A stretch of 64,000 nt of DNA from a virus (lineage: Duplodnaviria; Caudoviricetes): IMG/VR virus record IMGVR_UViG_3300032038_000060, positions 1 to 64,000 of that record. The stretch is one strand, 5' to 3'. Both the position numbers and the translations under genes were made by a program. Positions 747 to 63,054 of this stretch are shown piece after piece. Numbering within the stretch: position 1 is the stretch's first letter; each line of letters starts with the position of its first letter. Under the pieces are notes generated by a model, which worked only from the letters and a program-made list of their open reading frames with translations, did not search any database and was not told where the DNA came from.

Positions 747-782
747 TGCCCTTGCAGGCGGCAAGGCAAAACCGTAAATTTG
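747..782 (+). promoter_or_regulatory. Variant of the phage late-promoter motif (TGCCCTTG-N20-TAAATTTG)
   Basis: TGCCCTTG 747-754, 20-nt spacer, TAAATTTG 775-782, upstream of the HU-like gene at 892. Confidence 0.55.
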
Positions 783-891
783 CAATTAGTTAATTCACAT
801 TGATGCTTTTCGTTAATCCAATCAATTGGTTTTCGTTAATTGGCATTTATTCGATTAGTTAATATATAAACCATTTAAACATTTTTCAATC

Positions 892-1464
892 ATGGCTCAT
901 AACGTTAAGATAAAGTATTATGCGCGAGAGAACACACAGATGGGTACGCACAGTTTCTACGGACAGGCTATCCCAAACGGGACGTATGGATTTGAAGAGG
1001 TCTGCATCCAGGCCAGTCGCAACACCAGTATCGAGGCTCACACTATCAGGGCTGCCGTACAGGAATACATGGCAATCGTCATGCAGCGTCTGCTCGACGG
1101 CTTCAGAGTAGAGGTAGGCCCGCAGTTCCTCACATGCTCCCCAAGCCTGGTGGCAAAGGTGAAGGACACACTCAACGATGACGGCACCGTAAAGAAAGCC
1201 TGCACAGCCGACGATCTCAGCGCACGCAGTGGTAAGAGCCGCGTGAAGGTGGTTGTCAATCCTGAGTTCTCGCATGAGTTTGCCAGCAGCGTGAAGTGGC
1301 AGAAGAGTGACCGCAAGGGTAACGTCATCGACGAAGAGGAGGAGGATGCTACCCTCGACGACGAAGAGGCTGCTAACAACAACGACGGTAACGAAAACCA
1401 AAACGGTAACCAAAACCAGGGCGGTGGCTCCGGTAACACCGGCGACGGTTGGGAAGAAGGTTAA
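892..1464 (+). CDS. Bacteroidetes-type HU/IHF-like DNA-binding protein with an acidic, N/G-rich tail
   Basis: 190 aa. The pattern 'SIEAHTIRAAVQEYMAIVMQRLLDGFRVEVG...F...PSL' fits the Bacteroidetes HU-like family. Low-complexity D/E/N/G C-terminus. Confidence 0.7.
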   Translation: MAHNVKIKYYARENTQMGTHSFYGQAIPNGTYGFEEVCIQASRNTSIEAHTIRAAVQEYMAIVMQRLLDGFRVEVGPQFLTCSPSLVAKVKDTLNDDGTVKKACTADDLSARSGKSRVKVVVNPEFSHEFASSVKWQKSDRKGNVIDEEEEDATLDDEEAANNNDGNENQNGNQNQGGGSGNTGDGWEEG

Positions 1465-1544
1465 AGGTTAGCCGCTGAAGCTGGTTTCTTGCAGTCGGGC
1501 GTACAAACCCTTTGTGCAAGCGGCAGAGCCGATTACAGGTTTCT

Positions 1545-1650
1545 GGTTTGACTTCGTCGATACCCTCTACTACTTCCATAGTTCTATGTGCTCCCCACAG
1601 GGGTAACTTCGCACAGAACTATCAGGTCATAGCAGAGTGCATTCAGGTTT
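1545..1650. repeat. Structured intergenic (REP-like) element, diverged copy
   Basis: Begins ggtttgacttcgtcgata like the copies at 14701, 21580 and 22057. Internal stem with cccc-aca-gggg. Confidence 0.6.
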
Positions 1651-1875: not shown

Positions 1876-1910
1876 TGCCCTTGCTTTTACGCTTGCGCGT
1901 GTGTATTTTG
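1876..1910 (+). promoter_or_regulatory. Phage late-promoter motif TGCCCTTG-N20-TATTTTG
   Basis: Boxes at 1876-1883 and 1904-1910, upstream of ORF 1969 and the tape measure gene. Confidence 0.75.
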
Positions 1911-2593: not shown

Positions 2594-5500
2594 ATGAGCA
2601 ACAAGATAGCTTTAGCTACTATTCAGTTTCGCGCCGATGCGAAGGGCGCTAACGTAGCTCTCGAATCGCTGCGCAGCAGTGCCGATAATGCACGCCGAAC
2701 CGTAAACGAAATGCAGGCAGCGCTGGATAAGGGCATCAAGACGATGAAGGACTCTACCGGCGTGGAGTTCAACGTGGCTGACCGCCTAAGGGCTGCTACC
2801 AAGGAGGCCAAGGGCTTTGAGTCTGCAATCCACGAACTGATGAAGGGTGCTACAGCTCTGGAAGAGGTAGTACGAAATATCCGTCTGGGTGAGATTGAAA
2901 AGAGCAGTCGTGCCGAACTGAAGGGTGCCATCAACGCAGCGGAGAGCCGCAAGCGTTCTGTGCGTGGAAGTGACGAAGATAGTCTGAAGATGCAGCGTGA
3001 GCTGAACATCGTCATCGAGGAAAGCCGCAAACAGCTGAATAACCTTGACCGTGACACGCAAAAAGTTATTGATACGCTGAAGAACGGCGGTACTGTCGCG
3101 GAGTCGGTTCTTAACAAGGAGCAAAAGGGCTTGCAGGAAATACTCTCACTCATCCCAAAGGGTACTGAGGAATACAAGCAGTATGCTGCACAGCTGAAGG
3201 AAATCAAGACTCTTGTAGCCAACATCAAGCAACAGGAGCAGATAAAGGCCACCTCGCTGCTGGGCGATCAGAACCTTGGCAAATATACCGAGGAGCAGAT
3301 ACGCGCTGCCATTGATGCCGGCAAGTTGCTCATTCAGACTTACAAGACTGCCAGCCCTGAGGCTAAGGCTCTGGCTGACAACATAGCACGTGCCGAGCAG
3401 CACCTGAAGAACTACGGCATCGAGGCGGCTCGCGCTGCTGCAAAAGAGGCAGAGCAGATAAAGACGCAGGAACAGGCGGAGAAGCAACTGCGTATCACGA
3501 TGAATGGACGTCTGCGTGAATTGCCGAAACTGTCTGCCGAAGCTCTGGCTGAGACCAAGAAGTATTGGGAGGCGCAGAAGGCCGGTGCCGCGATGGGCAG
3601 CGCGGAGTTAGCCAAGTACGAGACTAACCTGAAGAAGATTGCCAATCAGGAAGAGAAGCGCCGCAGGGCACAGCTGGACAACGTTCTGACACAGCCAGGA
3701 CAATATGGTGTGGCAGAAGTGAAGGCTGCTACACAGGAGATGGAAAAACTGCGTGACAGCGTAAAGCAAGGTTCTGCTGCATGGCTGCACTATAACAAGA
3801 TGGTGGAGCAGGGTAAGGCGTACCTTGACGGTCTTGCGCTGCAAAAGGTAGAGACTCAGATGCAAAATCTCAGTACTCTCTCTGCTGCCGGACTGGCAGA
3901 GGTGAAGAAGTATTGGGAAGCGCAGGTATCAGGTGCCGCTCTTGGGAGCAGGGAACTTGACGAATACAAGGTAAAGCTGGAACAGGTGACTGCTGAGGAG
4001 CAACGCCGCACACAATTGCAAGCCCAACAACGTGTAGGTGTTCTCTCCAGCGGGAACCTGGGCCAATATACCGAGACGCAGATACGTCAGGCTATAGAGG
4101 CCGGGCAGCAGCTTATCAAGACGTATGCAACCGGTAGCACCGAGGCGCAAGAATTGGCGCAGAAGATTGTCGCTGCCGAGCAGCATTTGCGCCAGTATGG
4201 TGTGGAAGCGGAGCGCACGGCGGCGAAGGAAGCGGAGGCAGTGAGGAAGGCTGCCGAGGAACGTGCCAAGAACGACGCGCTGATGAAAGAGCAGTTGCAG
4301 AAGCAAGGTGCCCTGCTGTCAGAGTCTGCCCTGAAACAGCAGCAGCAGTACTGGCAGAGACTCATTGACGACCCCAAGACGGCAGCATCAAGCCTGCAGG
4401 AGTATAAGAGAAACTTGCTTGACGTACAAAGGGCACAACAAGCACAGACACAGATTAAAGGACAAGAGGCCCTTACCTTCTTCCGTGGCGACACCAGCAA
4501 TGCCAGTGCCGCTCAGATAAAGGAGCAGGCAGATGCTCTGAAGAAATACCGAGACTCGCTGCCACAGCAGACTAATGCCTCTATTATTCAGGAGATAGAC
4601 GGATATCTGGCAAAGACAGGCAAGACAGCCGAAAAAGCGACACAGGAGATGATAGAGCTTTCTAAGGCGATGAGTGTTTCTGCCAATTCGGGCAAGAGTG
4701 CTTTCGGCATTTCTAAGCAAAACATGGAGCAACTGGATTTCCTGAAGGAGCAGAAGAGATTGCTGGAAGAACAAATGGCAAGCGTGGCAAAAGGTTCTTT
4801 CACATGGCAAGAACTGAATAGAGAGTTGGCAGAGGTTAACGCACAGATGCAACGTCTGCCGTTTGCCGGTACTACCGAGGACTTACAGAAGGCACAGAAG
4901 GCAATAGAGCAGGCACTGGCCACCACCGACAAGGGTACGCCAAAGTATGAGCGTCTGCGTATGGCCCTCTCCCGTATCAAGGCTGAAATGGCAGGGGCTG
5001 GTATTTCTGCACAGAAGACGCAGGAGGTGCTGGCAAATCCGAAGGCAGAAAAGAGTATGGATGTCTTAAAGGCTGCCATTGCACGGGCACGTGCTGAAAT
5101 GGACGTGATGGGTCAGCGTGCCGAGCGCCTGAGATATCTTATAGAACAAGCCAGTGGCAGCGAAACATCCAGACACAGATTAGAAAGTCTGCAGAAAGAG
5201 TTGAGAAAGACGGAGGCAGACATGGCACAGCTCACCAAGGGCACCAAGGAATGTGACTTCGCACAGAAGCAACTTGCCAATACTTCCAAGGGTGCTGCCA
5301 GTTCCTTTGAAAAGGCATGGTCTCGCTTGAAGACATACATCACCCTGTATGTCGGTGCAGCCGTTGCTATACAAAAGATTACTGCCTCATTGGGTGACTT
5401 AATGGAACTCAGTGACAAGATGGGTGAGGTGCAGAAGACTACCAATCTGAATGCTGAAGCAGTAGGCCGCTTGTCTGAAAAACTAAAAGCCCTCGATGTG

Positions 5501-8500
5501 CGTACTCCTTTGGCAGACCTCATGGCTGTATCGGCAAGTGCCGGACAGTTGGGTTTGAAGACCGAGGAGGATATCATGGGCTTCACCGAGGCGGCTAACA
5601 AGATGATGATTGCCTTGCCTGAAATGGGTAAGGAGGCTGCAACGGAAATGATGCGTGTAGCTATCGCGACAGGCGAGGTTGACAAGATACGCAAGGAAAT
5701 GAGCCAAGGTTTGATAGAGGGTAGCAGTGCTACGGCTGTGGCAATGGAGAAAATTGCATCTACCGTTGACCGTCTGCGTGCAAGCAGTGCAAGTACGGCT
5801 CCTGAAATTACGGACTTCGTAAAGCGTGTTGGTGCCGTTGGTGCTCAGAGCGGCATATCTATTGATCAGGTAGCAGCCCTGGGTTCTACCATCAGTTCTC
5901 TTGGTATGCGTGTTGAGATGTCGGCAACGGCGTTGTCTCGTATGATACCGGCTATCAAAAACAATGCGTTTTCTGTAGCCAAGGCTATTGGAGTAACACC
6001 TGAGACCCTGCGTAATCTGTTTGAGACAGGCAGGGGTATGGAGGCAATACTGCTGATATTCCAGCACCTGAAGGATGCAGGCAAGGATGCTGACTCCATC
6101 GAGAAAATGCTGGGGCTTGGCGGTATGCAGGACGTGATGAAGCAACTTAACCAACAGGGTGCCAGGGCCGGCATCGTGTTTGCGGGTTTGTCACAAAACG
6201 TTGACGAGTTGCGCAAACAATTGGGTGTAGCTAATCAGGCTTACGAAGAGAACATCGCCATACAGCGGGAATTTGACCGTATGAACGATACCGCCGCCGC
6301 AAAGTGGGAAAGACTGAAAAACCAGTTTGAGGAGTTCTTTATAGGCGATGCCTCACAACGTTTCATGGGTGGACTGATCGATACTCTCCGTGGTTTTGTT
6401 GATGTCCTTACAGGAAACGTAGGTCCTGCTCTTCAGACTGTCACAGTACTTATTCACACATTCCTTGCATATTGGGGTGCATTGAAACTTGGTTTGGGTG
6501 AAGCTATTTTTGTCAAGGCATGGGAGGGCCTAAAGAATTTAGGCACGACCCTTTCTGGACTTACAACGACAACACAAAGGACTATCGTCTATACCAAATT
6601 ACTTGCAAAAGCAAACGAAGAACTGGCGGTAGCAACAACAGCAGTGGCACAAGCTGAAACAAGACAGAAAGTTGCCGCCATCGAGGCACGCATGGCACAG
6701 GAGGGTTTGAACAAAGCTATGGTTGCAAATATATGGATGGCCGTAGCTGTGGCCGTCGGAGCTTTAGTTCTTCAGGTTGTAAGATGGATAGATGCTGCCA
6801 ACGAGGCTGGCAAGGAGGCCGCTAAATTTGAAAGCGAACTGATAAGGGAGCAGATACAGGTAGATAATCTGACGGAGTCCATCGGTAAGGCAAGAGCAAA
6901 AATTGACGAGACAAACAAGGATGTTGAAAAGGCGCAAAAGGCTTTTAATGAAGCAAAGAAGAGTCTCGATGGCACTCGCGAGAGTACAGACAGACTGACA
7001 AAGGCCGAGACGGAACTGATAGAAAAGCAGGAGGCACAGCGCAAGGCTCTGGCCGAGCACAAGCGAATGATTGAACAGTTTAACACAGAGTATGGCAAAT
7101 ACCTGGGCTTTATGCTGAGTGAGGTTTCTTCAAACATTGAACTGGCACAGGCCCGCGAGTTAGTTAATGACAAATTGCGTGAGACTATCACCCTGAAGAA
7201 AAGGGAGGCTGCTATTACCCGTGTGGAGAATAAATACGGAGAAGATAGGGACGATGCTTATGCGTCTCTATTGGGTGCTGCACGCTATGCTTCCACCTCA
7301 AAAGACAACACTGGGAAAATGGTGCAAGACCCTACTAAGGCTGCAAAGGTAATGAATGCCATAACGAAGGCTGCCAATAATGACAAGCTGAGCAGGGAGC
7401 AATTTGAGAAGACCATTACAAGTTTCTTTAAGGAAAACAAGGTTGGCTACCGAGGAACGTCTTTGTTGAGTAAAGCACTCGATTACTTTGACGAGGTGAA
7501 AAAAGTCCGCGAGAAGACTAATGACGTGCTGGAACAATACAAGGGTGAAGACAAGGCTAACCGCGAGCAGTCACAGAAAGGACTGGAGCGACAGTACACA
7601 GCAGCCGTCGGCACTTACCTGGACCTTCAGAGAAAATACGTGAAGGCGACAGGTGATGCAAGAAAGCAGGCTGCCGCCGACATGCTGAAGCAGATGGACA
7701 GCATCAATGAGATGGTGGATAATTCCTCCAACTACTTTGACATGACCGAAGAAGATGAAAAGAGGTCGTATAACACCTTTATAAAGAATGGCGATGCTCG
7801 TCTGAAAGGTATGAACGCACAGCGTGAAAAACTTCTGAAAGAGGCAGGCAATGCCTATCAGTCGCGCAAGAAAGTAGGCGGTGGAGAGACTTCATCCATC
7901 AAGACTAACCCTTGGGGCGGCAGCCATGAGGCAGAGAGCATTGACTGGAAGAACATGAATGCCGATCAACTGGTGGCACGCCGCAAGCAGATGAATGAGT
8001 TCGTAAAAGCCATTCAGACAGACAGCGATGTTCAGAGCGTACTGAAAGAGGATGCCGCACTAAAGAAAGCCATCGAGAAGGGTATGTCGAGCGATATGCG
8101 TACCGTCATAGAATGGTATAACACAGAGCGCCTGAAGATACAGGATGAGTTGCATGCCCGTCACCTGACCAATACCGGCGACTGGCAGGATCCAAAGAAG
8201 CAGGCGGCCCGCAAGAAACAGTTCACGGATGAGATGAAGGCGTATCTGGAGGAACTGGATGCATACTATACAGAGCGCAACCAGAAGATTCAGAACGCCC
8301 GCAACGATGAGGAGATTACAGAAGGCGAGGCATGGCGACAGACCATTGAGAACGAGAGTGAATGGCATCAGCGCAGGGCCGAGCTGCAGAAGATGTACTC
8401 TAACAAGAGTGCCGAGGTGGTGAAGGATGAACAGGATGCTATTCACAGTATCATTGCCAAGAGGACCGGTGACGATGTTGCGTATATCGAAAAGAGCATA

Positions 8501-11500
8501 CAGAAGACAAAGCAGTTTGCCGAGCAGGTGCGCAAGGCTGACCCTCGCGGCGAGGACGAATACCGAAAATGGCAGGCTGACCTTGGACTGGGATGGGAAA
8601 AGGACTTCATGCAGCAGGCAAAGGCCATCGGCAAACAGGTGAAGTTCATGACGGACACACTGGCTAAGGAACGTCCGTTTAACGGCATCACTGAAAACCT
8701 TGAACTGAACCTGACGAAGATGGGTATATTGGTTGGCAACGTGCCCGACAAGATGCACTTCCTGTTAGGACAGATAGAGGATGCATATACACTGGACGTT
8801 AAGCAAATGGTTGACCGTGTGGCTCAGGCAGGCTTTACAGAGTGGGCTAAGCAGTTGCAGGGCGACGTATCTATGCAACAGGCTATGCTGGCACAGTTGC
8901 GCACGGCATACGAGGCGGTACAGGAGGCTATACGTAAAGAGGGTGCCCGCATAAAGAAGGATGCTGACATGATGTGGAAACTGGCTCTGACTCCTGACGG
9001 AAAGAATCTGAAGCAGGAGATTGATGCAGCAATGGTGAACATGACACAGCAGCAGGAGGCTGTAAGCAGAGCCAACTCCCTCATTGGTGCCGGAACGGCA
9101 TCGGAGAATGTGGCTTCAAGAGTAGCCATCAAACAGATGCAACTGCAGCTGAGTGTACAGCAGGCTCAGTTTGCCTTAATGAGAAAGATGGGCGACGAGA
9201 AGGCTCAGTACCTGGATCAGCTGGCAGAGCAGTATGAAAAGGAAAATAAACTGAAGGAGGCTGAAAGGGCTCGTCTGGATGCTGAAAACGTAAGAAAGAG
9301 TCTTGACATTGCCATTACGGAAGAGAAAAAGAAGCAGGCTGAGATTACAAAACATATTGCAAAGGAGCAGGAAGAAATACAGAATCGCCTGTATAAGGAC
9401 TTGCGCGAACTGAGCGGTCTCCTCACCAAAGGCTTGCAGGGTGTCTTTGAGGCGGTGAACTTCTACAACAGCAGCGACTATAATAATCTGGCTGTGACGC
9501 GGGCTGGTGGCTCGTATAACAAGAATACCACCAAGACGACTTCCTACAGCACCAGCAGTAAGGTGACGGACACGGGAAAGCATTCTACCTCGACGTCCGC
9601 TTCTTCTACCTCTACCAAGACGAACAAGACGGACTCGTCGGATGCATCACAGGCATCAAAGTCTTCTTACTCTGATACCAACCGCGACCAGAGTGTGAAC
9701 CGTTCTGCTACGTCAGACACTCACTCTACCACCAACACGTCGCAGTCGAAGACCTCTACCACCACGACGGAGAAGATACAGAGCTACTACATCATCGACA
9801 ATGCAGGTACGAAGGATGCTGTGGCCCGTGAGGTGGAGATGTCGGAGGAGGAGTATTACGAGAAGAAGATAGAACTCGACCGCGATAATGCCATCAAGGA
9901 AGCATGGAAGAATCTGCTCGACGAACTGAACATGAAGATGTCAGAGACCATCACTGATCAGATCAATGCCATGTTCCAGCAGGAGGCTATCGACACCAAT
10001 ACGGCTGCCCTCCGTCTGAATACTGATGCCCTTACAGGACTGACAGCCGCACTGGGTGCTTCACCTGAAACCAGAAACCAGAAACCTGAAACCGGCGATT
10101 GGGCCCGCGACGCACAGGGCATGGCTTTGGATGACAGCGGCAACATCGTTTATCCAATCCATCCGACAGAGACGGAAAGTGCCAAGCCGCTATTCCCAAC
10201 CTCTGCAGAAGATTGGGAAAAGACGAGGGAGCAGATGGGTGAAACCTTCCAGTTTGCCGGTGAGAAGATGATTGAGACCAACGAAATGCTCAACGAGGCA
10301 GGTGTCAAGCCGCTCTTCCCACAGCCAATGACCGACGACGAGGTGACGAAGACCATTGACAACTATGGCCTGATTCAAGACTCAATGGCAGAGAAGGTCA
10401 TTGAGACAGGTCAGATGGTACAGGATGCTGGCGTGCAGCCACTTACTCCGCAGATGATGTCGGACGAGGAGGTGCAGGCACAAATCGACCAGGCAAACAC
10501 TCTGGCACAGGGTAAGATTGATGCCCAGAACGCGGTAGCTGCCAATAAGGTAAATACTGACCAGCAACAGGTGAAGAGCGAAACATCTACTGACCAGCAG
10601 ATGACGACAAGTGCCAACAGCATGTATGCGAAGATGATACAGGCTGCAAATCTCTATGGTATTGCATATCAGGCAATGTCAAACGATAATTTGAATACGG
10701 CACAGAAATTCGAGATGATTGCAGTGCAGGCAGCAGGTCAGGCTGCAATATCTGCCTTGACAGCTTCTATGTCGCAAAATGCTGCACAGGTCGCTGCTGA
10801 CACTCCTGCCGTCGCATCTAAGACTTTTGCGCAACTTGGTCCTATCGGTGGACCTGCTGCCTTTGCTGCTATCACAGCTTTGCTTGGTGGTTTGCTTGGT
10901 GTTGCAGTCAGTAAGATTGCCAAAAGTAAGCAGGAAATCGCTCAGGCTACGGGTGTCAGTGCCTCTGGTACCAACGTCAGTGCCGGAAAGCTGATGACGG
11001 GTATGCTGACGTATGGCGAGGGTAACGTAAATGAGTTTACGGACCCAAGCAGTCTGACGCCGGGCAGGTCGTACAACGTTGACAGCGCGGACGGAAGGAC
11101 GTACAGGGCAAGGTATATGGGGGCTGACCCGAAGACACACCTGACGAACGGACCGGAGTTCCACCTGGTAGGCGAACGTGGCAGAGAGGCTATCATCGAC
11201 GCTCACACGACACGTCTGATGCAGATGGACGATACGGGCATCTGGCAGGCTATACAGACGTTGTATAACGGCGGCTCACTGCGCCACAGCGTCATGCGCC
11301 GTAAGGGACGTGGCATGGCTGCCTTCGCCGACGGAAACATTGACGAGTTCGAGACGACGGCTGATGGCGGAGGTCTGATGGCTGGCGGTGCAGGGTTATC
11401 ACCTGAACAGATGATGGCGCTGCAGGCGAGCATCGACAGACAGAGCGACTTGCTGGAGCGTGCTATGACGGACGGCATCCATGCATACTTCGACGTGTAT

Positions 11501-14034: not shown

Positions 14035-14066
14035 TTTGTGAGGAATTAAAATAATGCGTACCTTTG
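14035..14066 (+). promoter_or_regulatory. Host-type promoter TTTG-N20-TACCTTTG
   Basis: tttg 14035-14038 and tacctttg 14059-14066, upstream of the ATG at 14083. Confidence 0.75.
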
Positions 14067-19781: not shown

Positions 19782-19816
19782 TGCCCTTGCATTGTGAAAG
19801 CTGCTATTGTATATTG
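19782..19816 (+). promoter_or_regulatory. Phage late-promoter motif TGCCCTTG-N20-TATATTG
   Basis: Boxes at 19782-19789 and 19810-19816. Heads the 19844-28140 lysis/terminase cluster. Confidence 0.75.
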
Positions 19817-27419: not shown

Positions 27420-28140
27420 TGATTGAACTCGATACGATATACAACGAGGACTGTCTGGAGGGTATGCGGCGCATGCCGGACGGGTGTGTGGATTTGGTTA
27501 TTACAGACCCACCATATCTGATAGGCAATCAGGGTGGGGGATTCTGGAGCAAGGCAGCGGAGGGCAACCATTACAATGCTCGCGGTACTCGCAAGGGTAT
27601 GGAGAAGCTGGGCAATATCAAAGACGGCTTTGATGATGCCATTCTTGACGAACTCTGCCGCGTGATGAAAAAGATAAACCTCTACGTCTTTTGTTCGCAG
27701 AAGCAGATACAGCGTTACCTCGATTACTTTGTCAACAAGAGAGGCTGCAACTGGAACCTGATATCATGGCACAAGACGAACCCGATACCAGCCTGCGGTA
27801 ACAAATATCTGAGTGATACGGAATTTATCCTGTTCTTCAGAGAGAAGGGCGTGAGGGTGTATGGCACCTACGAGACAAAGCGCACGTTCTATGTCACGCT
27901 GCGTAACCAGGAGGATAACGTGCGCTATAACCATCCCACAGTGAAGCCGCTGAATATCATCCGCAACCTTATCATCAACAGCAGCGAAATGGGGGGGTAA
28001 TTTTAGACCCTTTCATAGGAACGGGCACTACTGCCGTCGCTGCAATGCAGGAGGGTAGGCGATATATAGGCTTCGAGATAGACAAAGGATATTACGAGAC
28101 GGCGAAGGGACGAGTCTCTGCCCTTGCAAATCACGTGTGA
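27416..28140 (+). pseudogene. Beta-class N4-C/N6-A DNA methyltransferase, frameshifted at a G7 tract (27991-27997)
   Basis: The catalytic 'LVITDPPY' lies in the first frame, which stops at 28000. The SAM-binding 'VILDPFIGTGTTAVAA...IGFEIDKGYY' continues in the shifted frame to TGA 28138-28140. G8 or G5 restores the frame. Confidence 0.85.
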
Positions 28141-28153
28141 GCACCTTATTTTG
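28119..28153 (+). promoter_or_regulatory. Phage late-promoter motif TGCCCTTG-N20-TATTTTG
   Basis: Boxes at 28119-28126 and 28147-28153, upstream of the portal gene. Confidence 0.75.
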
Positions 28154-35904: not shown

Positions 35905-35986
35905 TGCTGTTTTTAATTTTAAAATTGTTTGTGTTGAACTTTTTCCGTAAAATATATCTTTTTTGCTTCCGCGTCAAGGGCGCATG

Positions 35987-43882: not shown

Positions 43883-43917
43883 CAAAATAGGATTTTACCT
43901 CCCCGAAGTCAAGGGCA
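43883..43917 (-). promoter_or_regulatory. Phage late-promoter motif (leftward)
   Basis: caagggca 43910-43917 and caaaata 43883-43889, 20-nt spacer. Confidence 0.75.
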
Positions 43918-43949: not shown

Positions 43950-43984
43950 TGCCCTTGACCTCGCACATGTTTGGCGCTATTTTG
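43950..43984 (+). promoter_or_regulatory. Phage late-promoter motif (rightward)
   Basis: TGCCCTTG 43950-43957 and TATTTTG 43978-43984. Confidence 0.75.
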
Positions 43985-45227: not shown

Positions 45228-45262
45228 TGCCCTTGACTGTGGCGAGGTAAAATCCTATTTTG
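45228..45262 (+). promoter_or_regulatory. Phage late-promoter motif
   Basis: TGCCCTTG 45228-45235 and TATTTTG 45256-45262. Heads the protease/capsid operon. Confidence 0.75.
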
Positions 45263-45706: not shown

Positions 45707-45709
45707 ACT

Positions 45710-48029: not shown

Positions 48030-48088
48030 CAACAGACAAACAACACAATTAACAGTTTTTATTCACTCATTCAAACACAAACACAACT

Positions 48089-51486: not shown

Positions 51487-51496
51487 TTTTTGCACG

Positions 51497-51730
51497 ATGA
51501 AAATTGTAAAAATTATCAGATTCGGTAAAGAAGTGTTAAAAACGATGTCAGATTATGGCGTCAAAGAGGGTGACTGGAGGTACATCGACCTGTACGAGGA
51601 ATACAGGGAGATGCGCCGGAAGGGTTTTAAGTACAGATTTGTCATCATGCAACTCTCCATGACACACTGCATCAGCAAATCCAAGGTAGAAAGGATAATC
51701 CGCCGCCTCGGACAGGATGTGAAATGTTAG
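51497..51730 (+). CDS. Small HTH DNA-binding protein
   Basis: 'FVIMQLSMTHCISKSKVERIIRRL' is a helix-turn-helix. Confidence 0.7.
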   Translation: MKIVKIIRFGKEVLKTMSDYGVKEGDWRYIDLYEEYREMRRKGFKYRFVIMQLSMTHCISKSKVERIIRRLGQDVKC

Positions 51731-54900: not shown

Positions 54901-57900
54901 CCAGATGAGACGATGGCGTTGAACCATCAACGCCTGTAAGCAGGTCACTGATGTTGAACGATGAATCTATATAGTCGCCGTTCTCACCATCACTGCCATT
55001 CTCACCATCCTTACCGTCCTCTCCGACAATCTTCTGCCATGCACTCCATGAGCCACCAGTAGTGCGGGTGCGCATATACTTATCTCCTGTCTGAAAAGTG
55101 GTATGTATATCTTGGGCAGACGGGCTACTGTTGGGCGCATACTGTGCCTCTACGCTCGTTCCGTCTGTGCCCGCATAGCCTATCTGCTGGACATCGGTAT
55201 AGGTGGTTGGTGGTGCGCCATTTACCCATGTGATAATTTCATAGTTCCACAGGTATTGCCCCTGCCCTGGAGCGACAGGGCTGTTTCTCCAGCCAGTTCC
55301 ACCCTCATGCTCACGGTCTGGGGGGGTGTCGTTGCTGTCAGTCACCTTATACTTGTTTACTATAGTATCAATACCACGGCCTGCTGCGCCGTCCTTCGTC
55401 CATATAGCGAGTATCTGTGGTGTAGTGCGCTCAACAGTAACACCGCTGCTGTATTCTACCTTCTCATAATTCCACAGATATTTATTGGCTTCATTCCATC
55501 GCTCGGCAGCAGGCTTGTCAGCAAGATTAGGATCGGTACTCCAGCCTTGTGCAGACTCCTGTCCGTCAGCAGGTGCTGTTTCACTGTGCTGCGCATCGCT
55601 GCCATCAAGATTGCTTGCCTTGTAATACTCCGTAACTCTAACAATGCTCCTACCATCCTTGCCGTCTTTGCCGTCTTTGAGGGTCAGGGCACCATTGGCT
55701 ACATACGCTGCCAGTTCTACAACGTCAGTATAGGCCCCAATGTTACGCATCCTTGTGTGGCCATTTCCTTTGCCGAGGTTCTTGTATCCTATGAACAGGA
55801 ATGGATAGCGGCCTGCAGCGGTGTATGGCAAGTCGCTCATACCATAGCCTTGAAGGGCTGTGATAAGAGGATATGTGCCTGCTGTCACATCTGCCGGACG
55901 CTGCCAGCCAATAGCATCAAAGCTCACAAGACATACAAATACACTATCGTCAAGACTGTTAAGTCTCGCTATAAGGTCGGTTATGCCTGGATTCAACGCC
56001 TGCTGGCTGCCCACCGCTTCTCCGTAGGTGTCGTAATGTGCTTCTTCAACCTTTGCCAGTGTCTGCCTGTTAATAGTGACAAGGTTAAGTCCACGCTGAT
56101 ATAATGTGACAAGATTACTTCCACCGTTTACCTTTACTTCACATGGCTGAGTATCGGTCTCAGCAGAATTGATGTCACGCGCTGTACCCTTTAGGTATAT
56201 GTATTGCGCGTTCTCGCCATCCGTGCCGATGTATGATACGTTATAGTTGACAGAAGAACCAGCGCTTCCTGAGCCATCAGCCTTTTTGTAGTTTGTCGTT
56301 GCCTGACTCCACAGCCATTTGCCTGGAACAATTTGCGACTTGATATTATCGTAGTCAAACCATTGAGTAGGTCGAACGGCGTTGCTATCGCTTACAGCAT
56401 ACTTCATCACGGTAGCACCATCGACGATAATATCCTGACCAGGCTGACCGTCATTAGGGTTACGCTCTGAGGAGTATAGGTTGGTCTTGCTGTTGTCGCT
56501 CCATGTGATGATGGTCTTCGTCCAGAAATATCTGCCTGCAGTCCATAGCGGCAATACCCTGTCTTTGCTCTCGTACCATTTACTGAGGTCAGCATCTCCT
56601 GTCGGGCTGCCGTCCTGAATAGGCTGTACTGTGTCGATAGTTACAGCATAGCGATACTCTTCGCTTTGCTTTGTTATGCTTTCGCCATCCTTTGCCCACT
56701 TCGACCATAGTCCCAGTTTGCCGAAGCCACCCCATGTGCCGTTTATCCTTTGTATTACTGAGCAATAGCAGAATGGCATTTCCTCTGTCGGAGCCAATGG
56801 GTCGTCATCCCAACCGTCGCATTCCCACTCTTTTGTGGTGTCATTGAATGTTGCGCCGGACGGTTTAAGGCTGTCTCGTTCAGAATCGGTAAGTTCGTGG
56901 TTGAACAGTTTATACAGATATTGCACGCCGTCACCGTCAGCGCCCTGTACTCCCCAGTTGGTCCACAGCACAGGAGAAGAGAACGCGCCCCATTGCTGCC
57001 CAGATTCTTTGATACGGATAGAGATGTACACATATTTCTCGCTGCTCGTTGCAGGCATAGCAGTGTCGCTCCAGTCGTCGGGCACCCAGTCATTCTTTGT
57101 CTTGTCGTTACTGCTGATGCGCTGGCCCTGATGCTCAGGGTCGGGAATTGTACCCGTATTGATGCTTGCAGGGACGGTTCCGCTAAACGGATAAGTATTC
57201 AGTCTCTTATAGATATACTCCCTGTCTTCCGCATCTGCGCCAGGCTCTCCCTTAATGCCACTGATACAGACCGGGCCGCTCCATGCATCGCGTGTATTGT
57301 CACCATGACGTATGCTGCTGCACATCCACAGCAGCCACTCGCCCGTAGAAGGACGGTCAGGAACGGTGCTGCTCCAATTGCCGAGAGGAGATACTTTGTC
57401 TGCACCGCTATGGTCGGTCTCTGCAGGGGCCGGTTCGTCGCTGTCGGTGGCTGTAGGCTTTGCTGGTGTAAGGCCCTCTTTGTACCACCTGTAGCAGTTG
57501 ATAGGGGTGTCGCCTTTTGCGCCAAAACGTATATAGGTAATGGTACGGTTAGTGAGGATGATGTTATCGCCCTCTTCTTCTGGTTCTGGCTGCCATTCGC
57601 CTACTTGCAGCCATGTGTTTACCCCCTTGCCTGCAAGGAATGGGGCAGAAGGCAGAGTGCCGCTACCATTAGTTAGGTCGAGCTCTGTTGGATCATTGGT
57701 GTCATCTATCGGTTGGTAATAGACGTGCAGGTCAATAGCCTTGATCTGTTCATTGGTTGGGTAAAAGATATTGCCGTCAGCATCTTTGGCCCTGACACGT
57801 ACTGTCACGCCAGAGTCTGTGGAATACGTTTGCGTCTGCTCGTCGTATTCAATGGCTGGTACATATTCCCCCGTCTGAGGATTATACGTTACGGTTTCTG

Positions 57901-58873
57901 ATGACACCTCCAGCTCGTAACTCTCCACTGGCTCTGCCATTACAGAGAAGGTACTGGAGATGAGAGGTATGTATTGTGGCAGTTCCGAACCTTCAGTATA
58001 GTCAGGATTTTTCTCATACGCCGTAAAGGTAAAGATAGCAGAGAACATTCCGTTAAAGTCATCACCCTGGCCGCGAGTGTGAGCAAGATATAAATCCGTT
58101 TCTGTCGTCCTGATGTCTGTATGCGCTGCATTCCAAGTGTTATCTGCATCGCTGCCGGTATTGCGGGTTATCTCCCAATGGTGGAAGTGTGTAATGTCTG
58201 TTCCCGTCCAACCTTCTATAAGTTTTGCATTGACATGAAGCACCTGTTCCCAGCGCACATAGCGTACATCGGCAGTCCATTCCTCGCCGAGGATAGTGCC
58301 AAGCATATAATTCATGTCTATCCTCAGCGGCAGGGCATCGGGGTTGAGAGCCCACTCAGAGTTCCACTGGTCAGTGCCAAGGATACCGGTATCGAGGTCA
58401 ACGGCACGCTGGTTGGTACTGTCTGCAGCGCTTACTTCGCCCAGCTTCACGTACCAGTATGTGTCGTTATCCACTACTCCGGGCTCGCTGCCTGGGACGC
58501 TTGGGTTATAGCTTATGCTGAGTCCGTCTTTGGTGATGTAACTGTACTTGTCGTACCACTCGTTGTTGTATTGCTGCTTGGGAGTGAATACGATGTAGCC
58601 GTCTCTGATGTCGGTCTTAGAGAGGCGGGCATAGATGGTGTGGGGCTTTGTGCTCGCATAGCTTTCTATGCTGTCGGCAAGACGGCGGTTCCTGCCATAC
58701 AGTTGCCATACGCTATAGGTGCCGTTGGCAGTGCCTATCCCAAGACGGGGGCAATAGACCTTGATGTCTGTCACAGGTGCTATATATACTGCGAGGTCGT
58801 TATACGAGTTATTGGCATTGGGTGTAATCTCAATGCTCGATGGAGTAATGTAGTGAGTTGGTGAAGTGCGCAT
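51905..58873 (-). CDS. Large tail fibre/host-specificity protein with an ILEI/PANDER-like domain and collagen-like linkers
   Basis: 2322 aa. Repeated GxDG/DGKDG linkers, duplicated 'AQY..W..FQTGD..MRT..W...KIVGE.G' modules, and 'RGLNLVTINRQ..HYDTYG..VCLVSFDA'. Confidence 0.75.
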   Translation of the reverse strand: MRTSPTHYITPSSIEITPNANNSYNDLAVYIAPVTDIKVYCPRLGIGTANGTYSVWQLYGRNRRLADSIESYASTKPHTIYARLSKTDIRDGYIVFTPKQQYNNEWYDKYSYITKDGLSISYNPSVPGSEPGVVDNDTYWYVKLGEVSAADSTNQRAVDLDTGILGTDQWNSEWALNPDALPLRIDMNYMLGTILGEEWTADVRYVRWEQVLHVNAKLIEGWTGTDITHFHHWEITRNTGSDADNTWNAAHTDIRTTETDLYLAHTRGQGDDFNGMFSAIFTFTAYEKNPDYTEGSELPQYIPLISSTFSVMAEPVESYELEVSSETVTYNPQTGEYVPAIEYDEQTQTYSTDSGVTVRVRAKDADGNIFYPTNEQIKAIDLHVYYQPIDDTNDPTELDLTNGSGTLPSAPFLAGKGVNTWLQVGEWQPEPEEEGDNIILTNRTITYIRFGAKGDTPINCYRWYKEGLTPAKPTATDSDEPAPAETDHSGADKVSPLGNWSSTVPDRPSTGEWLLWMCSSIRHGDNTRDAWSGPVCISGIKGEPGADAEDREYIYKRLNTYPFSGTVPASINTGTIPDPEHQGQRISSNDKTKNDWVPDDWSDTAMPATSSEKYVYISIRIKESGQQWGAFSSPVLWTNWGVQGADGDGVQYLYKLFNHELTDSERDSLKPSGATFNDTTKEWECDGWDDDPLAPTEEMPFCYCSVIQRINGTWGGFGKLGLWSKWAKDGESITKQSEEYRYAVTIDTVQPIQDGSPTGDADLSKWYESKDRVLPLWTAGRYFWTKTIITWSDNSKTNLYSSERNPNDGQPGQDIIVDGATVMKYAVSDSNAVRPTQWFDYDNIKSQIVPGKWLWSQATTNYKKADGSGSAGSSVNYNVSYIGTDGENAQYIYLKGTARDINSAETDTQPCEVKVNGGSNLVTLYQRGLNLVTINRQTLAKVEEAHYDTYGEAVGSQQALNPGITDLIARLNSLDDSVFVCLVSFDAIGWQRPADVTAGTYPLITALQGYGMSDLPYTAAGRYPFLFIGYKNLGKGNGHTRMRNIGAYTDVVELAAYVANGALTLKDGKDGKDGRSIVRVTEYYKASNLDGSDAQHSETAPADGQESAQGWSTDPNLADKPAAERWNEANKYLWNYEKVEYSSGVTVERTTPQILAIWTKDGAAGRGIDTIVNKYKVTDSNDTPPDREHEGGTGWRNSPVAPGQGQYLWNYEIITWVNGAPPTTYTDVQQIGYAGTDGTSVEAQYAPNSSPSAQDIHTTFQTGDKYMRTRTTGGSWSAWQKIVGEDGKDGENGSDGENGDYIDSSFNISDLLTGVDGSTPSSHLGYQQWQDGPVPTTNAMPYLWCKQVKHSFTGGSETVGTPKYFRMTGEDGKDGTSPVFADIDNEMDSVACDKEGFVVSEQDVETHVSMFRGNTLMTGLSITSIVREDTEETFTADYYGGSTWAECRDMSSLKIKVSYENNRATIIFRFLNDEGESVNNVEHFTINASAGGESKQLTFTVNGVRPGADGTNAVLYSLNPSASEIVKKKNGGTEPNSNITCSVIKTDGNSRTAVTTGFVLKTYVDGVLRMNGPVNPADVNTGIVYELYVPNTSGVLVDKETIPVVTDGTDGTSIIAQYSADGSNWHSPFQTGDVWMRTSEDGTTWGAAMKIVGENGSETDYSFGISQYKTTTNAETAPSDITTWSDSPIEVTTAKPYLWSKVVKKDGSGTASSTSYIRLTGEKGMDAIRGYADYLYSKDDQGNNRPAASASLLGKIDLLSYNSSSQYRIAVCETDGSSGYVWKGYGENDYPDGTMFVCRLDNHLYRATANGWQDEGRFKGDNAVVYKIEFTDSTFAYNPNTARNIVDIRGIVYKADGGNTTVFTGLTMEMLELYFVLENGNRERIDPNPDIITINNGAFSTNNRNGRAWNGEKTFLAILKIDGKQVADANIPKGVYGTDGAPGSRGKRGRSYYYAQPWENDSFAYLVNDSVAPYFEYLGEYYVYNPVGDVNDSISMHDMGTPSTSNPNWEQMQSKFKYLITEAIFGKFANFGAFIINDPWLFSKSGQWKGESADVDSTINYDLCYWEGLTGYADKINNAPILTFINDNPSISGESLIDDETLRTQPIYFPYGEDSEDFPPITLPANTILTITARCKDCAKVNLCKVIAPDDVDYPVELTTIFSPDTQGYQRASCQFAVRDEGEYRIRFDKSNDANSCYVAWFKLNTCYFLPNFAVNGDNGKTALNNAYGDFNGDIRGDFCYFESGTIQSANIGRKIHIGDAYGGSGTWFDFSKDTFDIHKNSYVRMVKHNGSQLVPMGYIYVDSDNIVKFRESRTMFGYYKQ

Positions 58874-58936: not shown

Positions 58937-59011
58937 CAAAATACGTTCGCGTCTCTTTAAAATCAAGGGCAACTACTGCCCTTGCAAACGCGAGGTGCGC
59001 ACACTATTTTG
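58937..59011. promoter_or_regulatory. Back-to-back pair of late-promoter motifs
   Basis: Leftward: caaaata 58937-58943 and caagggca 58964-58971. Rightward: TGCCCTTG 58977-58984 and TATTTTG 59005-59011. Confidence 0.8.
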
Positions 59012-59026: not shown

Positions 59027-61618
59027 ATGGAAAATAATCTTGCTCTCGAAATATTTGACCTCGAAGGCACAGGCAGTCAGTTCGCCACTCTTGACGAGGG
59101 CGCAAGCATCAGCATCACCGACACCAGCGAGATATTCGCCAGCGGTGACGTATGGAGCTTCTCGTTTACGCTGAATGTCTTTGCCAATGCCCACATCTTC
59201 GGCACTACGGGAGATATACACGGAGGCCGTCTGCATGAGCAGATCGATCACCGCCGCGCCCGTCTGTGGGTAAAGGGTCTGCCAATATATCTGGGCTACC
59301 TGAAACTCGGTGACGAGGTGGACGTGAAGGAGAACGGTGATGTGTCTGTCAGTCTGGAGAGCGGCCACAAGACTTTCGACGATATGATTGAGGGCATGAG
59401 TGCTCAGGATGTCAGCGTAGGCGACGTGGTGATAGGCATTGCGCTGAACCGTAAGAGGACAATAAGTGCCCAAGCATCAGGTAAGATAACTTTTAGATCA
59501 ATGTCTGTCAAAACAGATAACAAGCATATTGTCGAAGAAGGATGGGCTGATTTTTCGGGTAGCATAGATTCAAGTTCTTATACTGCACGGTGGCCGAAAC
59601 TGGTATTGTCAAAGGGCGTTGTTACAGATTCATCAGGTATGAGAGTTGAAATAAACCGCACCAACGTGGATCATCCTTACGATGCTGCCTACCCGTGCTG
59701 TAACATCAATGTGTGTTATCAGAAAAAGGTTCTTAATGCAGATAAACAAGAAGAAAAAGTACGCGGTTATTATCTCCGTCTTGGAAGCGGATTAAACACA
59801 ACGAATGGCGGCGACGTGGAGACACGCTATAATAATGCTCCTAACTTTTTCCTCCTTTACTGGCTTGACCGCCTATTCTTGGACAAAGGTATTCACGTAG
59901 AGGAAAACCAGATGATGAATGTTGAAGGTCTGCGACGCGTGTTCCTTGCCAACCTCGGTTGCTTCTATGAAGAAATGGATACCGACAACGACAAGGACGA
60001 ACTTGCACCTGGTACTCCTGAACGTGAACACTATGGAATGTATTCTTTTCCCAATAATTTTCTTATAAATGATGGTGAAATTTTTCCATACGATAGTGAC
60101 GGTGGCTTAGTACGATTGGATGAAATAAAAATGAATGGCCAGAGAACGCAAGAGGTATATGCCGAAGTTTCCATAGGGGATGTTTCTTATACATACAAAT
60201 CACCTTTAACCGGTTACAAGGCTTATGCTACAGGAGAGAACTATCCCAAGGTTGATGCCTCGGAGATAATCAAGTCTGTAGAAGCGGCTTTTGGCGTGAG
60301 GTTTCTGTTCGACAAAGACTATACAAAAGTGCGCATAATTCTTTTGCGTAATATCTTTCAAAACAAAGAGGTGCAGAACATAGAGTGCGAGGTGATAGAA
60401 GAGCAGAAAACGGAAAACAAGATAAGAGGTTTCGTGATGACATACGGCGGCAGCGATGATGACACCACCTATAACTACAGTGACTGGAGTCGTCTCGACA
60501 CCTCCAAGACCTATCAGCAAATAAAGGATAGGTGTGTAACATCGTTTAACAAGACGTGTTACCTCACTCCTAACAATGGCAACGCCTACCGCATAAAGAT
60601 TGACGAAGATGAAGCCGTTCTGTATCCAGTACTGATGGAAGTCGCAGGCTTTGCAGATGCTAAAGACGGTAACTGCGACGGAGAGGACGATACCATACAG
60701 ACCGTCACCATACCCGCCAAACCACTTATCATGAACGACGTTGATGGCACATACGCAGTATTATTCAGCGGCGATATGAAAGTACCAGGTGAAGAAGTTC
60801 CTATAGCATGTCATACTTCAACAACAAGGTTTACTGTAAATTCTGGGATAGCCGTCTGGACTTATGCCGCTGGCAGGCAAGAAACAGAAAACAAATTGGA
60901 TGAACTTTATAATATGCTACATAATGCTTGGAGTGAACAGGTTGAAAAATATGCCAAATCAGAAATAGATAAACTCGAATTAACCATAAATCAAGAGTTT
61001 TATCGTATTGAAGCGAGCGGAGAAGTGTTTCTCAAAGAAGGCTACAAAGCCTCTCTTCAGGACAATTATAGTTTTGAGGGCAATGACGGTACTCCTTTTG
61101 ACAAAGCGGAGATAGGACTACAATTTGGCGTAATGCGTAGCAGCGGATTTGATTCCTTTATATACTACAATAATGACAACGAAGAAAATGAGGGTAATGA
61201 CTATTGGGAGACTGTGCCCGGAAATAGTGTTGTTGACCATCCTGACACCTGTGACAACTACGGCAACAGTTGGGGTGTCAATCTCTCTCTAAAACTACGT
61301 GCGGAGAAGCAAAACCCGGACTTCGACCCAAAGAAGCCGGAGAGTGCAAGCAATCCGCGCTTCGTAGCGGACATCACCAACCCGAATCTGCGGCGCAGGG
61401 GACTGATGGATCAGTTCTATAAGGAATACTCTTACTGGATTCGTAATGCCCGCATCGTTACCAAGAAGGTGAACATGACGCTGGCGCAGCTGCTCTCCAT
61501 CGACAAGACCAAGCGCATACGCATCGGCGATGTGACGGGCTATGTCCGCAAGATACAATACACAGTCAGCAAAAAGACGGGCCTCGGACCCGTCACGCTG
61601 GAGATAATGTATATTTGA
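59027..61618 (+). CDS. Tail/baseplate hub-like structural protein
   Basis: Start MENNLA after the promoter, 863 aa. The N-terminal 'SISITDTSEIFASGDVWSFSFTL' is typical of siphovirus tail-tip proteins. Confidence 0.55.
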   Translation: MENNLALEIFDLEGTGSQFATLDEGASISITDTSEIFASGDVWSFSFTLNVFANAHIFGTTGDIHGGRLHEQIDHRRARLWVKGLPIYLGYLKLGDEVDVKENGDVSVSLESGHKTFDDMIEGMSAQDVSVGDVVIGIALNRKRTISAQASGKITFRSMSVKTDNKHIVEEGWADFSGSIDSSSYTARWPKLVLSKGVVTDSSGMRVEINRTNVDHPYDAAYPCCNINVCYQKKVLNADKQEEKVRGYYLRLGSGLNTTNGGDVETRYNNAPNFFLLYWLDRLFLDKGIHVEENQMMNVEGLRRVFLANLGCFYEEMDTDNDKDELAPGTPEREHYGMYSFPNNFLINDGEIFPYDSDGGLVRLDEIKMNGQRTQEVYAEVSIGDVSYTYKSPLTGYKAYATGENYPKVDASEIIKSVEAAFGVRFLFDKDYTKVRIILLRNIFQNKEVQNIECEVIEEQKTENKIRGFVMTYGGSDDDTTYNYSDWSRLDTSKTYQQIKDRCVTSFNKTCYLTPNNGNAYRIKIDEDEAVLYPVLMEVAGFADAKDGNCDGEDDTIQTVTIPAKPLIMNDVDGTYAVLFSGDMKVPGEEVPIACHTSTTRFTVNSGIAVWTYAAGRQETENKLDELYNMLHNAWSEQVEKYAKSEIDKLELTINQEFYRIEASGEVFLKEGYKASLQDNYSFEGNDGTPFDKAEIGLQFGVMRSSGFDSFIYYNNDNEENEGNDYWETVPGNSVVDHPDTCDNYGNSWGVNLSLKLRAEKQNPDFDPKKPESASNPRFVADITNPNLRRRGLMDQFYKEYSYWIRNARIVTKKVNMTLAQLLSIDKTKRIRIGDVTGYVRKIQYTVSKKTGLGPVTLEIMYI

Positions 61619-61768
61619 TGGATGAAAGGGGAATGGTGATATGGAGGAAGGAAGAAGGACGAAGGAATAAGGTTTATTTGTGGGGATGTTGGTATTAAAC
61701 TTTCACCCTTCATCCATAAACCTTTTACCCCAAAACAATATTTAATTTTCAATGTTCAATGATTTAAG

Positions 61769-62971
61769 ATGGCAAACGTAGTAACAGTTTCGGGAATGTT
61801 CGGCAAGGGTCACACCTATTTCGCCGACGCACCGGTAGTGATAGATATCAGTGGACTGTACTGGGGCGACCCTGTCAGTAGTCCGTTTACGGTAGTCCGC
61901 GTAGAGGTGGTATGGCTGAAGGACACAGGCGGTCAGGAGCCAGAGAAGATAACGGTGGGTGACTTCCGTGCCGACACGGGCGGACAGACCTCCATCAGCT
62001 TCGACATATCGTCGGCGCTGCATACCATCTGGAGCGGATATGACTTCAGCAAGGAGGTGGCTGCAGCACAGGAGGCGGCAGACGCAAACGACTATGCCGG
62101 ACACGTGGCAACAGAGGGAGGCGACATCGGCAGCGAGGGTTACAGAAAGTACCGTGCCTATATCCTGCGTATATGGACAGAATACCTGGCAAGCGACGGG
62201 AATTTCGTACAGACGCAGTGTGAGGACTCTCTCGGTAATACCGACATCCCCGGAGGTCAGTGTTTGATAGGCGGACTGACAGAGTGGGAGAGGAGTATGG
62301 TTATAGAGGCTAAGCATGACAAGAAGTATGCCGACGCCTCTTATTGGGAACACAAAGGCCCTCGTAACGGTGATGCCAGCACCAAGCCGACAAGCTCTCC
62401 GGAACGGGTGGGGAGCAACAGCATAACGTCATGGGCTGACGTAGCAAAAGAGGGTACAAAGAGCATCTTCTATCCGGCTGGAGTATTCCCTGCCCCAGAC
62501 GATCCGGAAAACAGTCTGAACCCTCGCTACTACAAGGGTCATGCGCCACTCGTGCTGCGCGACAGCCAGCCGTATATAGACTTCCTGTTCGTCAACCGAC
62601 GTGGAGCAGTAGAGACATGTAGCGCACTGATGAAGGAGGCATTGAGCATTACTGCCGAGACAACAGAGTATTCCCGTGTGGAGCGGCCTACGTTCAAGCC
62701 GTCACGCTCGCTGATGACAATATCGGCAGGCGGCAGGAGGAGTTGGAGTATGTCATCAGGCAAGCAGACACGCGAATGGTTGGAGTGGTGGACAATAGAG
62801 TTTCTGCCTGCTCGTCAGAAGTGGATGCTCTACAGGGGCCCGGGCGCTGACAAGGCTATGTTCGTACCTGTAACGGTTACGCCTGCAAAAAAAAGTGTCA
62901 GCATCTATGACCGGAGCAAACAGCAATTAGAGAGTGTAGAGTTCACCGTCACCCTTGGACTGGAAGGATGA
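61769..62971 (+). CDS. Tail structural protein
   Basis: 400 aa, 'DFLFVNRRGAVET' motif of Bacteroidales phage tail proteins. Confidence 0.5.
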   Translation: MANVVTVSGMFGKGHTYFADAPVVIDISGLYWGDPVSSPFTVVRVEVVWLKDTGGQEPEKITVGDFRADTGGQTSISFDISSALHTIWSGYDFSKEVAAAQEAADANDYAGHVATEGGDIGSEGYRKYRAYILRIWTEYLASDGNFVQTQCEDSLGNTDIPGGQCLIGGLTEWERSMVIEAKHDKKYADASYWEHKGPRNGDASTKPTSSPERVGSNSITSWADVAKEGTKSIFYPAGVFPAPDDPENSLNPRYYKGHAPLVLRDSQPYIDFLFVNRRGAVETCSALMKEALSITAETTEYSRVERPTFKPSRSLMTISAGGRRSWSMSSGKQTREWLEWWTIEFLPARQKWMLYRGPGADKAMFVPVTVTPAKKSVSIYDRSKQQLESVEFTVTLGLEG

Positions 62972-63019
62972 AACGATTTTTAATTCATAATTCACAATTC
63001 ATAATTCATAATTATCTTT

Positions 63020-63054
63020 TGCCCTTGAAGTTGGAAAGATGAAACACTATATTG
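63020..63054 (+). promoter_or_regulatory. Phage late-promoter motif TGCCCTTG-N20-TATATTG
   Basis: Boxes at 63020-63027 and 63048-63054, upstream of the holin. Confidence 0.75.

Follow-up and report, generated by a model that had tools for sequence, protein, structure and literature searches.

The window analyzed here is the first 64 kb (64,000 nucleotides) of a single 72,819-bp IMG/VR record, IMGVR_UViG_3300032038_000060, which is the contig of a rumen Bacteroidales phage and has a completeness rating of 61%. Its structural and lysis operons are preceded by a bipartite motif, TGCCCTTG-N20-TATWTTG, which is the subject of this report. The genes behind the motif include a tape measure (identified by phrog_28 and PF10145), an amidase/endolysin, a large terminase (identified by tblastn to annotated terminases), a prohead-protease-like gene and a 2322-aa tail-fibre-like gene. 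These identities agree with a first-pass annotation of the same DNA; the genes that it had named 'portal', 'major capsid' and 'holin' have no family match and are placed by size or position.

Placement of the motif in the window

The first-pass annotation had listed nine exact copies with an invariant 20-nt spacer. All nine were found at the positions and on the strands that it gave (Table 1), and none arose in 100 dinucleotide-preserving shuffles. The final 8.8 kb of the contig contains no further copy. The octamer TGCCCTTG alone occurs 11 times in the window against 2.6 expected: ten of these octamers belong to the nine exact sites and the variant at 747, and the eleventh falls within the tape-measure gene, at 5243(-), where no downstream box accompanies it. 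Every exact site is intergenic and aimed at a start codon 15-63 nt past the end of TATWTTG, close to the 20-65 nt estimated before. An A that we predict to be position +1 lies six bases past TTG in eight of the nine.

A position weight matrix trained on the sites of relatives only and then scored on the window gave 26-37 bits for the nine exact sites, with 18.7 bits for the best of 30 shuffles. All ten sites above 20 bits are intergenic, with a co-oriented ATG 10-58 nt beyond the predicted +1. The tenth is the variant at 35948-35982(-), at 20.6 bits; this site and the variant at 747(+), both proposed together with the exact copies, are plausible members of the set. Viewed from the downstream element, the listing of short -7 boxes in promoter position has 11 entries, 8 of them with the upstream box; the ninth exact site (19782) is absent from that listing, masked by a spurious short open reading frame call.

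Two pairs of sites are divergent, as had been described, and in one of them the upstream boxes (58964-58971 and 58977-58984) are inverted with a 5-bp gap. The gap between such back-to-back boxes ranges from ~3 to 39 bp across relatives, so that the divergent boxes look like a pair of adjacent promoters rather than a single palindrome.

The same genome has a second class of promoter. Boxes of the host type, TACCTTTG, in some cases with a TTTG placed 20 nt before them, precede non-structural genes only: 294-644, 14083, 33613, the 19090-19461/parA operon and a cassette of seven genes at 32545-33099. Two additional host-type boxes face apparent RNA loci. The host form reported before rep, parA, 14083 and 33613 was recovered in each case, the box of rep lying just inside its reading-frame call. 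The bipartite motif thus marks a regulon of structural and lysis operons, as first suggested: it is shared by these operons and absent from early genes and from the host, the pattern expected of a phage late or middle regulon.

Table 1. Motif sites, an example of a host-type promoter and two candidate regulatory genes in the window; G numbers denote genomes of relatives
Feature	Position	Strand	Composition and context
Variant site	747..782	+	TGCCCTTG-N20-TAAATTTG, host-length -7 box; 110 nt before HU-HIG gene 892-1464
Exact site	1876..1910	+	Before 1969-2493 and 2992-aa tape-measure gene 2594-11572
Exact site	19782..19816	+	Before gene run 19844-28000, including amidase, large terminase and methyltransferase
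Exact site	28119..28153	+	Before 600-aa portal-position gene 28182-29984
Variant site	35948..35982	-	CGCCCTTG-N20-TATTTTA; before DUF4376 gene 35341-35904, beside reverse transcriptase
Exact site	43883..43917	-	Before minus-strand run of small tail genes beginning with 43560-43850
Exact site	43950..43984	+	Before 402-aa structural gene 44008-45216
Exact site	45228..45262	+	Before head module 45290-50080 (protease-like and capsid-position genes)
Exact site	58937..58971	-	Before 2322-aa tail-fibre-like gene 51905-58873; orthologues in G005, G002 and G212 have the site
Exact site	58977..59011	+	Before 863-aa gene 59027-61618; orthologues have the site; 5 bp from the 58937..58971 site
Exact site	63020..63054	+	Before 63076-63645
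Host-type promoter (example)	14035..14066	+	TTTG-N20-TACCTTTG before non-structural gene 14083-14682; consensus from PMC7366714
Alpha-CTD-like protein	294..644	-	116 aa; weak match, 14 bits; behind host-type -7 box
Candidate reader C	51497..51730	+	77 aa; four-helix helix-turn-helix; phrog_17790; sigma-region-4-like, remotely Mor-like

Conservation and geometry in related phages

Protein searches identified ~45 related IMG/VR loci as well as six phage contigs binned into metagenome-assembled genomes (MAGs) of Bacteroidaceae, Prevotella and Bacteroidales from the rumen. When IMG/VR was scanned for the exact pattern, the matches listed were mostly single chance occurrences, and relatives were taken from the protein searches instead; INPHARED held no near DNA match to the window. 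The relatives include five complete genomes of 125-145 kb, one with terminal repeats, and G212 is a complete genome of 101.7 kb. The closest sizeable relative is G210 (IMGVR_UViG_3300031998_000346, loci L206/L207), which is 32% complete and has a TerL 80% identical to that of the window's own contig (G000). The genomes compared also include G001, G002, G003, G005, G213 and G214.

The motif recurs throughout the related loci despite protein identities of 35-65% and rearranged genomes. A site lies directly upstream of orthologues of the portal-position gene (in each of G005, G002 and G212), of the 402-aa gene (~55 nt upstream in most of 25 related loci) and of the 2322-aa, 863-aa and 400-aa genes. 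Placement is also conserved at the tape-measure operon (132694(-) in G005; in G002 the nearest site, 80899(+), is ~580 nt upstream) and, in relatives, at the capsid-position gene. The CGCCCTTG box of the 35948 variant is present in G212 too. The 61769 gene in the window has no box upstream, though its orthologues have one.

Column statistics were computed from 113 distinct sites of relatives. The spacer columns hold almost no information, and several columns that played no part in site selection are conserved: a Y precedes the box; an A follows it in 86% of sites, then y-t-t; C follows TTG in 62% (T in 6%); and an A stands six bases past the G of TTG in 91%, followed by an A-rich leader. The position of this last A fits a transcription start. 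With transcription taken to begin there, as the sequence suggests, the upstream element yTGCCCTTGAyyt would span -41 to -29 with its TTG at -35 to -33, and TAnnTTG(C) would span -12 to -5. The spacer between the boxes is exactly 20 nt and free in sequence, and the A-rich leader runs ~8-58 nt to the ATG. The rigidity of this geometry is evident from 161 distinct TGCCCTTG boxes, 62 of which have TAnnTTG at exactly 20 nt and none at 19 or 21 nt.

Two relatives carry altered forms of the motif. In G212, ~seven TGCCCTTG-N20 sites mostly have TAACTTT(C/G) boxes, and the combination of the box with TAnnTTT(G), as at 747, predominates. In G210, six promoter-like sites have yTCCCTTGA in place of TGCCCTTGA; a search for more relatives of this lineage found none beyond G210. 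A lineage-specific switch of this kind fits a reader and a site that co-evolve.

Other features of the contig bear on the lifestyle of these phages. ParA and a replication initiator are encoded, no integrase was recognized among the contig's proteins, and the group of uncultured 100-145 kb phages may be carried as plasmids. A reverse transcriptase at 35987-37237 (-) (phrog_1423, E = 1.8e-76) adjoins the DUF4376 protein at 35341-35904 (-), and the pair fits a diversity-generating retroelement; an RVT_1 protein is encoded elsewhere in the genomes of G005 and G002. The final 8.8 kb of the contig encodes a Dam-like methyltransferase, a YopX protein and a PAPS-reductase-domain protein (L164:4438-6176, -).

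Host core promoters and candidate reader proteins

The primary sigma factor of Bacteroidota recognizes two elements whose distance from each other varies, TAnnTTTG at -7 and a TTTG close to -33 (PMC7366714). The phage signal shares with this promoter TTG at -35 to -33, a 20-nt spacer, TA at -12/-11 and an A-rich leader, so that the host geometry is kept, with TTG on the -33 position. The first-pass annotation had also described a -7 box one base shorter and an upstream box longer than those of the host, and both differences are borne out. The -7 box lacks one T in all nine exact sites, TAAATTTG being found only at 747, and the -33 element is CTTG embedded in TGCCCTTGA, invariant over 9-12 bp. 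Spacing is rigid in the phage and variable in the host.

A shortened box of this type has a precedent in SM5, a promoter motif of Flavobacterium psychrophilum (Guerin et al. 2021, PMC9723704). SM5 reads TAnnTTGY and occupies -12 to -5, its G falling at -6 and its final pyrimidine at -5. The motif was located by 5'-end RNA-seq, promoter mutagenesis confirmed it, and transcription begins 5-6 nt past it. As a host motif it comes from another bacterial order; the paper assigns it no sigma factor, and the text consulted reports no condition-specific induction. The phage box has the same missing base, the same G at -6 and pyrimidine at -5, and the same implied start: TAnnTTG is present in all nine exact sites, where the next base is C, G or A and a pyrimidine in six, and in relatives it is followed by Y in ~68%. 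It differs in being paired with an upstream box, none being mentioned for SM5 in the paper text consulted. Judged from its sequence, the phage signal is a host-style core promoter, probably composed of an SM5-variant -7 element and a -33 element inside yTGCCCTTGAyyt.

The suggestion that the promoter class had not been described therefore holds in part. The shortened box was already known as SM5 (PMC9723704), and only its pairing with TGCCCTTGA appears to be new. Literature searches for the box sequence returned primers only, and searches of the phage-promoter literature returned nothing relevant; a phage signal with an SM5-type box and no recognizable sigma factor appears to be undescribed in the literature searched.

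The motif is not a promoter class of the host. In five MAGs that hold such phage contigs, matches are confined to a few contigs, including the identified phage contigs. In 199 further host-family genomes (~0.57 Gb), TGCCCTTG-N20-TAnnTTG occurs 32 times, which is near chance: a reversed control gave 17 matches in the same 199 genomes and 18 in all 201 genomes searched. These counts correspond to ~1 match per 18 Mb of host-family DNA versus ~1 per 10 kb of phage DNA. The extended box alone gave 13 matches in 16.8 Mb versus ~8 expected.

No sigma factor had been recognized in the window, and none emerged in the rest of the contig or in the five complete relatives: Sigma70_r2 had no match in any of them, and Sigma70_r4_2 gave just weak sub-threshold matches, in two of the relatives. 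The best of these is a 273-aa protein of G002 (66603-67421 = L180:6603-7421, -) with an N-terminal helix-turn-helix and a weak region-4-like segment; it also has a strong RNA-polymerase alpha-CTD domain (74 bits). A 161-aa alpha-CTD protein is encoded in G003 (L191:1177-1659, +; 37.6 bits). These two proteins and the 294-644 product may be phage transcription accessories, but they are not universal. A universal reader of this kind was rejected when a custom profile found no alpha-CTD-like protein in G005, G212 or G210; G001 lacks one as well, and the 294-644 protein itself has no counterpart in G001, G005 or G212.

A universal large protein of 1148 aa without a Pfam match (G005:84901-88347 = L173:4901-8347, -; orthologues in G002, G212 and G210) was considered as an RNA polymerase and rejected, since its CHC2 zinc finger, Toprim-like motif and Walker A/B motifs identify it as a primase-helicase. 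It is the only universal large non-structural protein, so that no phage RNA polymerase is evident, and the host polymerase is likely to be the enzyme at these promoters. The window's contig has no such gene, in keeping with its estimated completeness of 61%.

Three genes, 294-644, 14083-14682 and 51497-51730, had been put forward as candidates for a factor that reads the box. None is universal among the box-bearing relatives, and for 14083-14682 BLAST found no match in G002. The best candidate is the product of 51497-51730, here called protein C, but its identification as the reader is tentative and on balance improbable. Its gene is present in single copy in each of G000-G005, G213 and G214. 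The predicted model has four helices and is confident (pLDDT 89.5). In fold searches it came closest mostly to sigma region 4 and to the helix-turn-helix domains of transposases, with best Z values of 4.3-6.4 that are not decisive, and the Mor complex ranked 50th in Foldseek. The family comprises 675 representative clusters. Similarity to Mor (PF08765) is remote: 29 of 144 family members match it with E values of 9e-5 or weaker, below the cut-off; the window protein itself has no Pfam match and does not reach that cut-off; and hhalign aligns the family profile to the helix-turn-helix of Mu Mor over 25 residues with a probability of 69%.

The surroundings of the protein C gene suggest a local regulatory switch, which counts against C as the reader. 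In three genomes examined and in two distant phages the gene stands beside a divergent host-type promoter, mostly near a hairpin-forming sequence. The divergent boxes, TAATTTTG, TACCTTTG, TACATTTG or TATCTTTG, are on the opposite strand (window 51299-51496, G002, G005, L194, L195), and the arrangement is kept where the C proteins are just 22-35% identical. The box is absent from the distant phages that encode a C homologue. In one such phage a different repeat, GTCCCGTCTGyTGCGAT-N-ATCGCA, occupies no fewer than six intergenic sites, some of them followed by a host-type -7 box (L195:8360-12442). In the window, a 40-codon open frame at 33229-33348 (-) matches the C-family profile with E = 2.8e-10 and looks like a truncated second copy of C.

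Other widespread small proteins offered no functional lead. Protein A (G000:63821-64141, -), which is universal, spans the end of the window; its acidic-aromatic C-terminal tail, EEEIDKAFGF, resembles a DDIDxIF motif that the first-pass annotation saw on several small tail proteins. Homologues of protein B, also universal (137 aa; G000:64582-64995 = L164:582-995, -), form 167 clusters, and B is assigned to no family. A confident AlphaFold model of B (pLDDT 87.6, pTM 0.80) matches no solved structure above Z 4.4, and neither B nor 14083-14682 yielded a lead in the ESM Atlas. Two HU-family proteins are encoded, HU-HIG at 892-1464 (+) and a Bac_DNA_binding protein at 22568-22996 (+); the latter is present in every complete relative examined and likewise gave no lead as a reader.

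Competing readings and significance

Comparison with the related phages strongly supports the view that structural and lysis operons have a promoter class of their own, represented by the motif. We further infer that transcription starts at these sites, that host polymerase is used, that a phage factor is required at the box, and when the operons are expressed; the earlier proposals that the sites would be poor for host sigma alone and that they form a late regulon are likewise conjectural. Taken together, we assign a probability of about 0.6 to the reading in which the motif forms the core of promoters specific to this phage lineage, driving virion, packaging and lysis operons, with a phage-encoded factor reading the box. 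Under this reading, host RNA polymerase would transcribe these operons, a primary-sigma-type domain 2 would read the -7 box, and a phage-encoded specificity protein would contact the 9-12-bp upstream box at the -33 position. This protein would act beside sigma region 4 or replace it, in the manner of T4 MotA/AsiA or Mu Mor/C. All structural operons would be switched on together, and the replication, partition and accessory genes would be served by ordinary host TACCTTTG promoters. A narrower version, in which a small free-standing phage protein (C or another universal protein) reads TGCCCTTGA at -33 and takes over the role of host sigma region 4, is more speculative, and we doubt it on present evidence.

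Several observations weigh against the phage-factor reading. No phage protein could be linked to the box: alpha-CTD-like proteins occur in just three of the genomes searched, a C homologue was not found in the complete G212 with HMMER filters off although ~seven box sites are present there, and in some relatives the C gene itself lies downstream of a box site. In uninfected F. psychrophilum, boxes of the SM5 type work with no upstream box (PMC9723704), so that the phage -7 box alone may give basal activity. A host factor with a very small regulon would be compatible with the genome counts, the host assignment depends on phage contigs binned into MAGs, and the start site and timing are predictions from sequence.

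The strongest competitor would dispense with a phage factor altogether. These could be strong host-read promoters at which the holoenzyme recognizes TAnnTTGY and an extended -33 element directly; the reader would be the primary sigma or the sigma of SM5, and the box an optimized, always-on phage form. The TTG of the box does coincide with the -33 position of the host at its usual spacing of 20 nt, uninfected F. psychrophilum cells transcribe from SM5 promoters (PMC9723704), and a universal phage regulator was not found among the relatives searched. We nevertheless consider this explanation unlikely. The 9-12 invariant bases are far above the loosely conserved host TTTG, and phage spacing is never 19 or 21 nt where host spacing is variable. 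A true host element should precede host genes, whereas the box with its -7 partner is near chance in ~0.57 Gb of host-family DNA. Finally, the box became yTCCCTTGA in one close lineage.

The inflexible spacer and a box that takes the place of the host -33 element count against this explanation and also against a second, less probable alternative, in which the promoters are host-read and a phage repressor, with the upstream box as its operator, silences the structural operons in a plasmid-prophage state. This model takes the dispersed, asymmetric C1 operators of the phage-plasmid P1 as its pattern, and it would account for ParA and a replication initiator without a recognized integrase, which fit a plasmid-like lifestyle. 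It would also suit a box that is asymmetric, dispersed and overlapping the -33 position, and the small helix-turn-helix protein encoded in most relatives. P1 operators, however, occupy varied positions relative to their promoters, and here the distance from the box to -7 is invariant over more than 100 sites in diverged genomes. The box substitutes for the host -33 element and is not an addition to it, and back-to-back boxes ~3-39 bp apart keep no cooperative operator geometry. We regard a repressor operator as improbable.

A repeat with a role in packaging, replication or recombination, or a mobile mini-element, would explain the dispersal and the inverted repeat at 58964-58984, but is highly improbable given that each site is intergenic, faces the adjacent gene and has an A-rich leader and an ATG behind it, that just two short boxes are conserved with a free spacer, and that the sites are kept before orthologous genes in rearranged genomes.

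If a phage factor does read the box, the system would be classical in kind, its nearest analogues being the T4 middle promoters and the Mor- and C-dependent promoters of Mu. T4 middle promoters combine a MotA box at -30 with a host -10 element, and sigma is appropriated by MotA and AsiA. The signal described here likewise has a host-type downstream element and a phage-specific box at the -35 place, in a regulon that we propose is read by host polymerase; the box sequence and the host phylum differ, and general Pfam and PHROGs scans of ~65 proteins turned up no MotA or AsiA relatives. The Mu activators Mor and C are dimers, and their dyad-symmetric binding sites lie upstream of -33. Shared with Mu are a small phage helix-turn-helix candidate with remote Mor similarity and target promoters without a host -35/-33 element, but the phage box here is asymmetric and placed at -41 to -29, and the candidate protein C is missing from G212. 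Promoters of extracytoplasmic-function (ECF) sigma factors resemble the phage signal in their highly conserved upstream element and rigid spacer. They differ from it in that the phage downstream element is TAnnTTG, of the primary-sigma type, and not a CGT-type -10, and no sigma region-2 domain was detected in the contig or the five complete relatives.

To our knowledge, almost nothing is known about the timing of gene expression in tailed phages of gut and rumen Bacteroidales, save for the crAss-like phages, which carry their own polymerase. The signal provides a precise, testable promoter map for a large group of uncultured phages and connects it to the SM5 box of Bacteroidota. It is also a practical marker for finding such phages and annotating their operons in metagenomes. 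If a small free-standing phage protein does take over the role of sigma region 4, the system would constitute a Bacteroidota counterpart of sigma appropriation, with an orthogonal promoter and factor whose co-evolution follows lineage (TGCCCTTGA versus yTCCCTTGA). Should there be a dedicated reader, the two together would provide a compact orthogonal expression switch for the engineering of Bacteroides and Prevotella.

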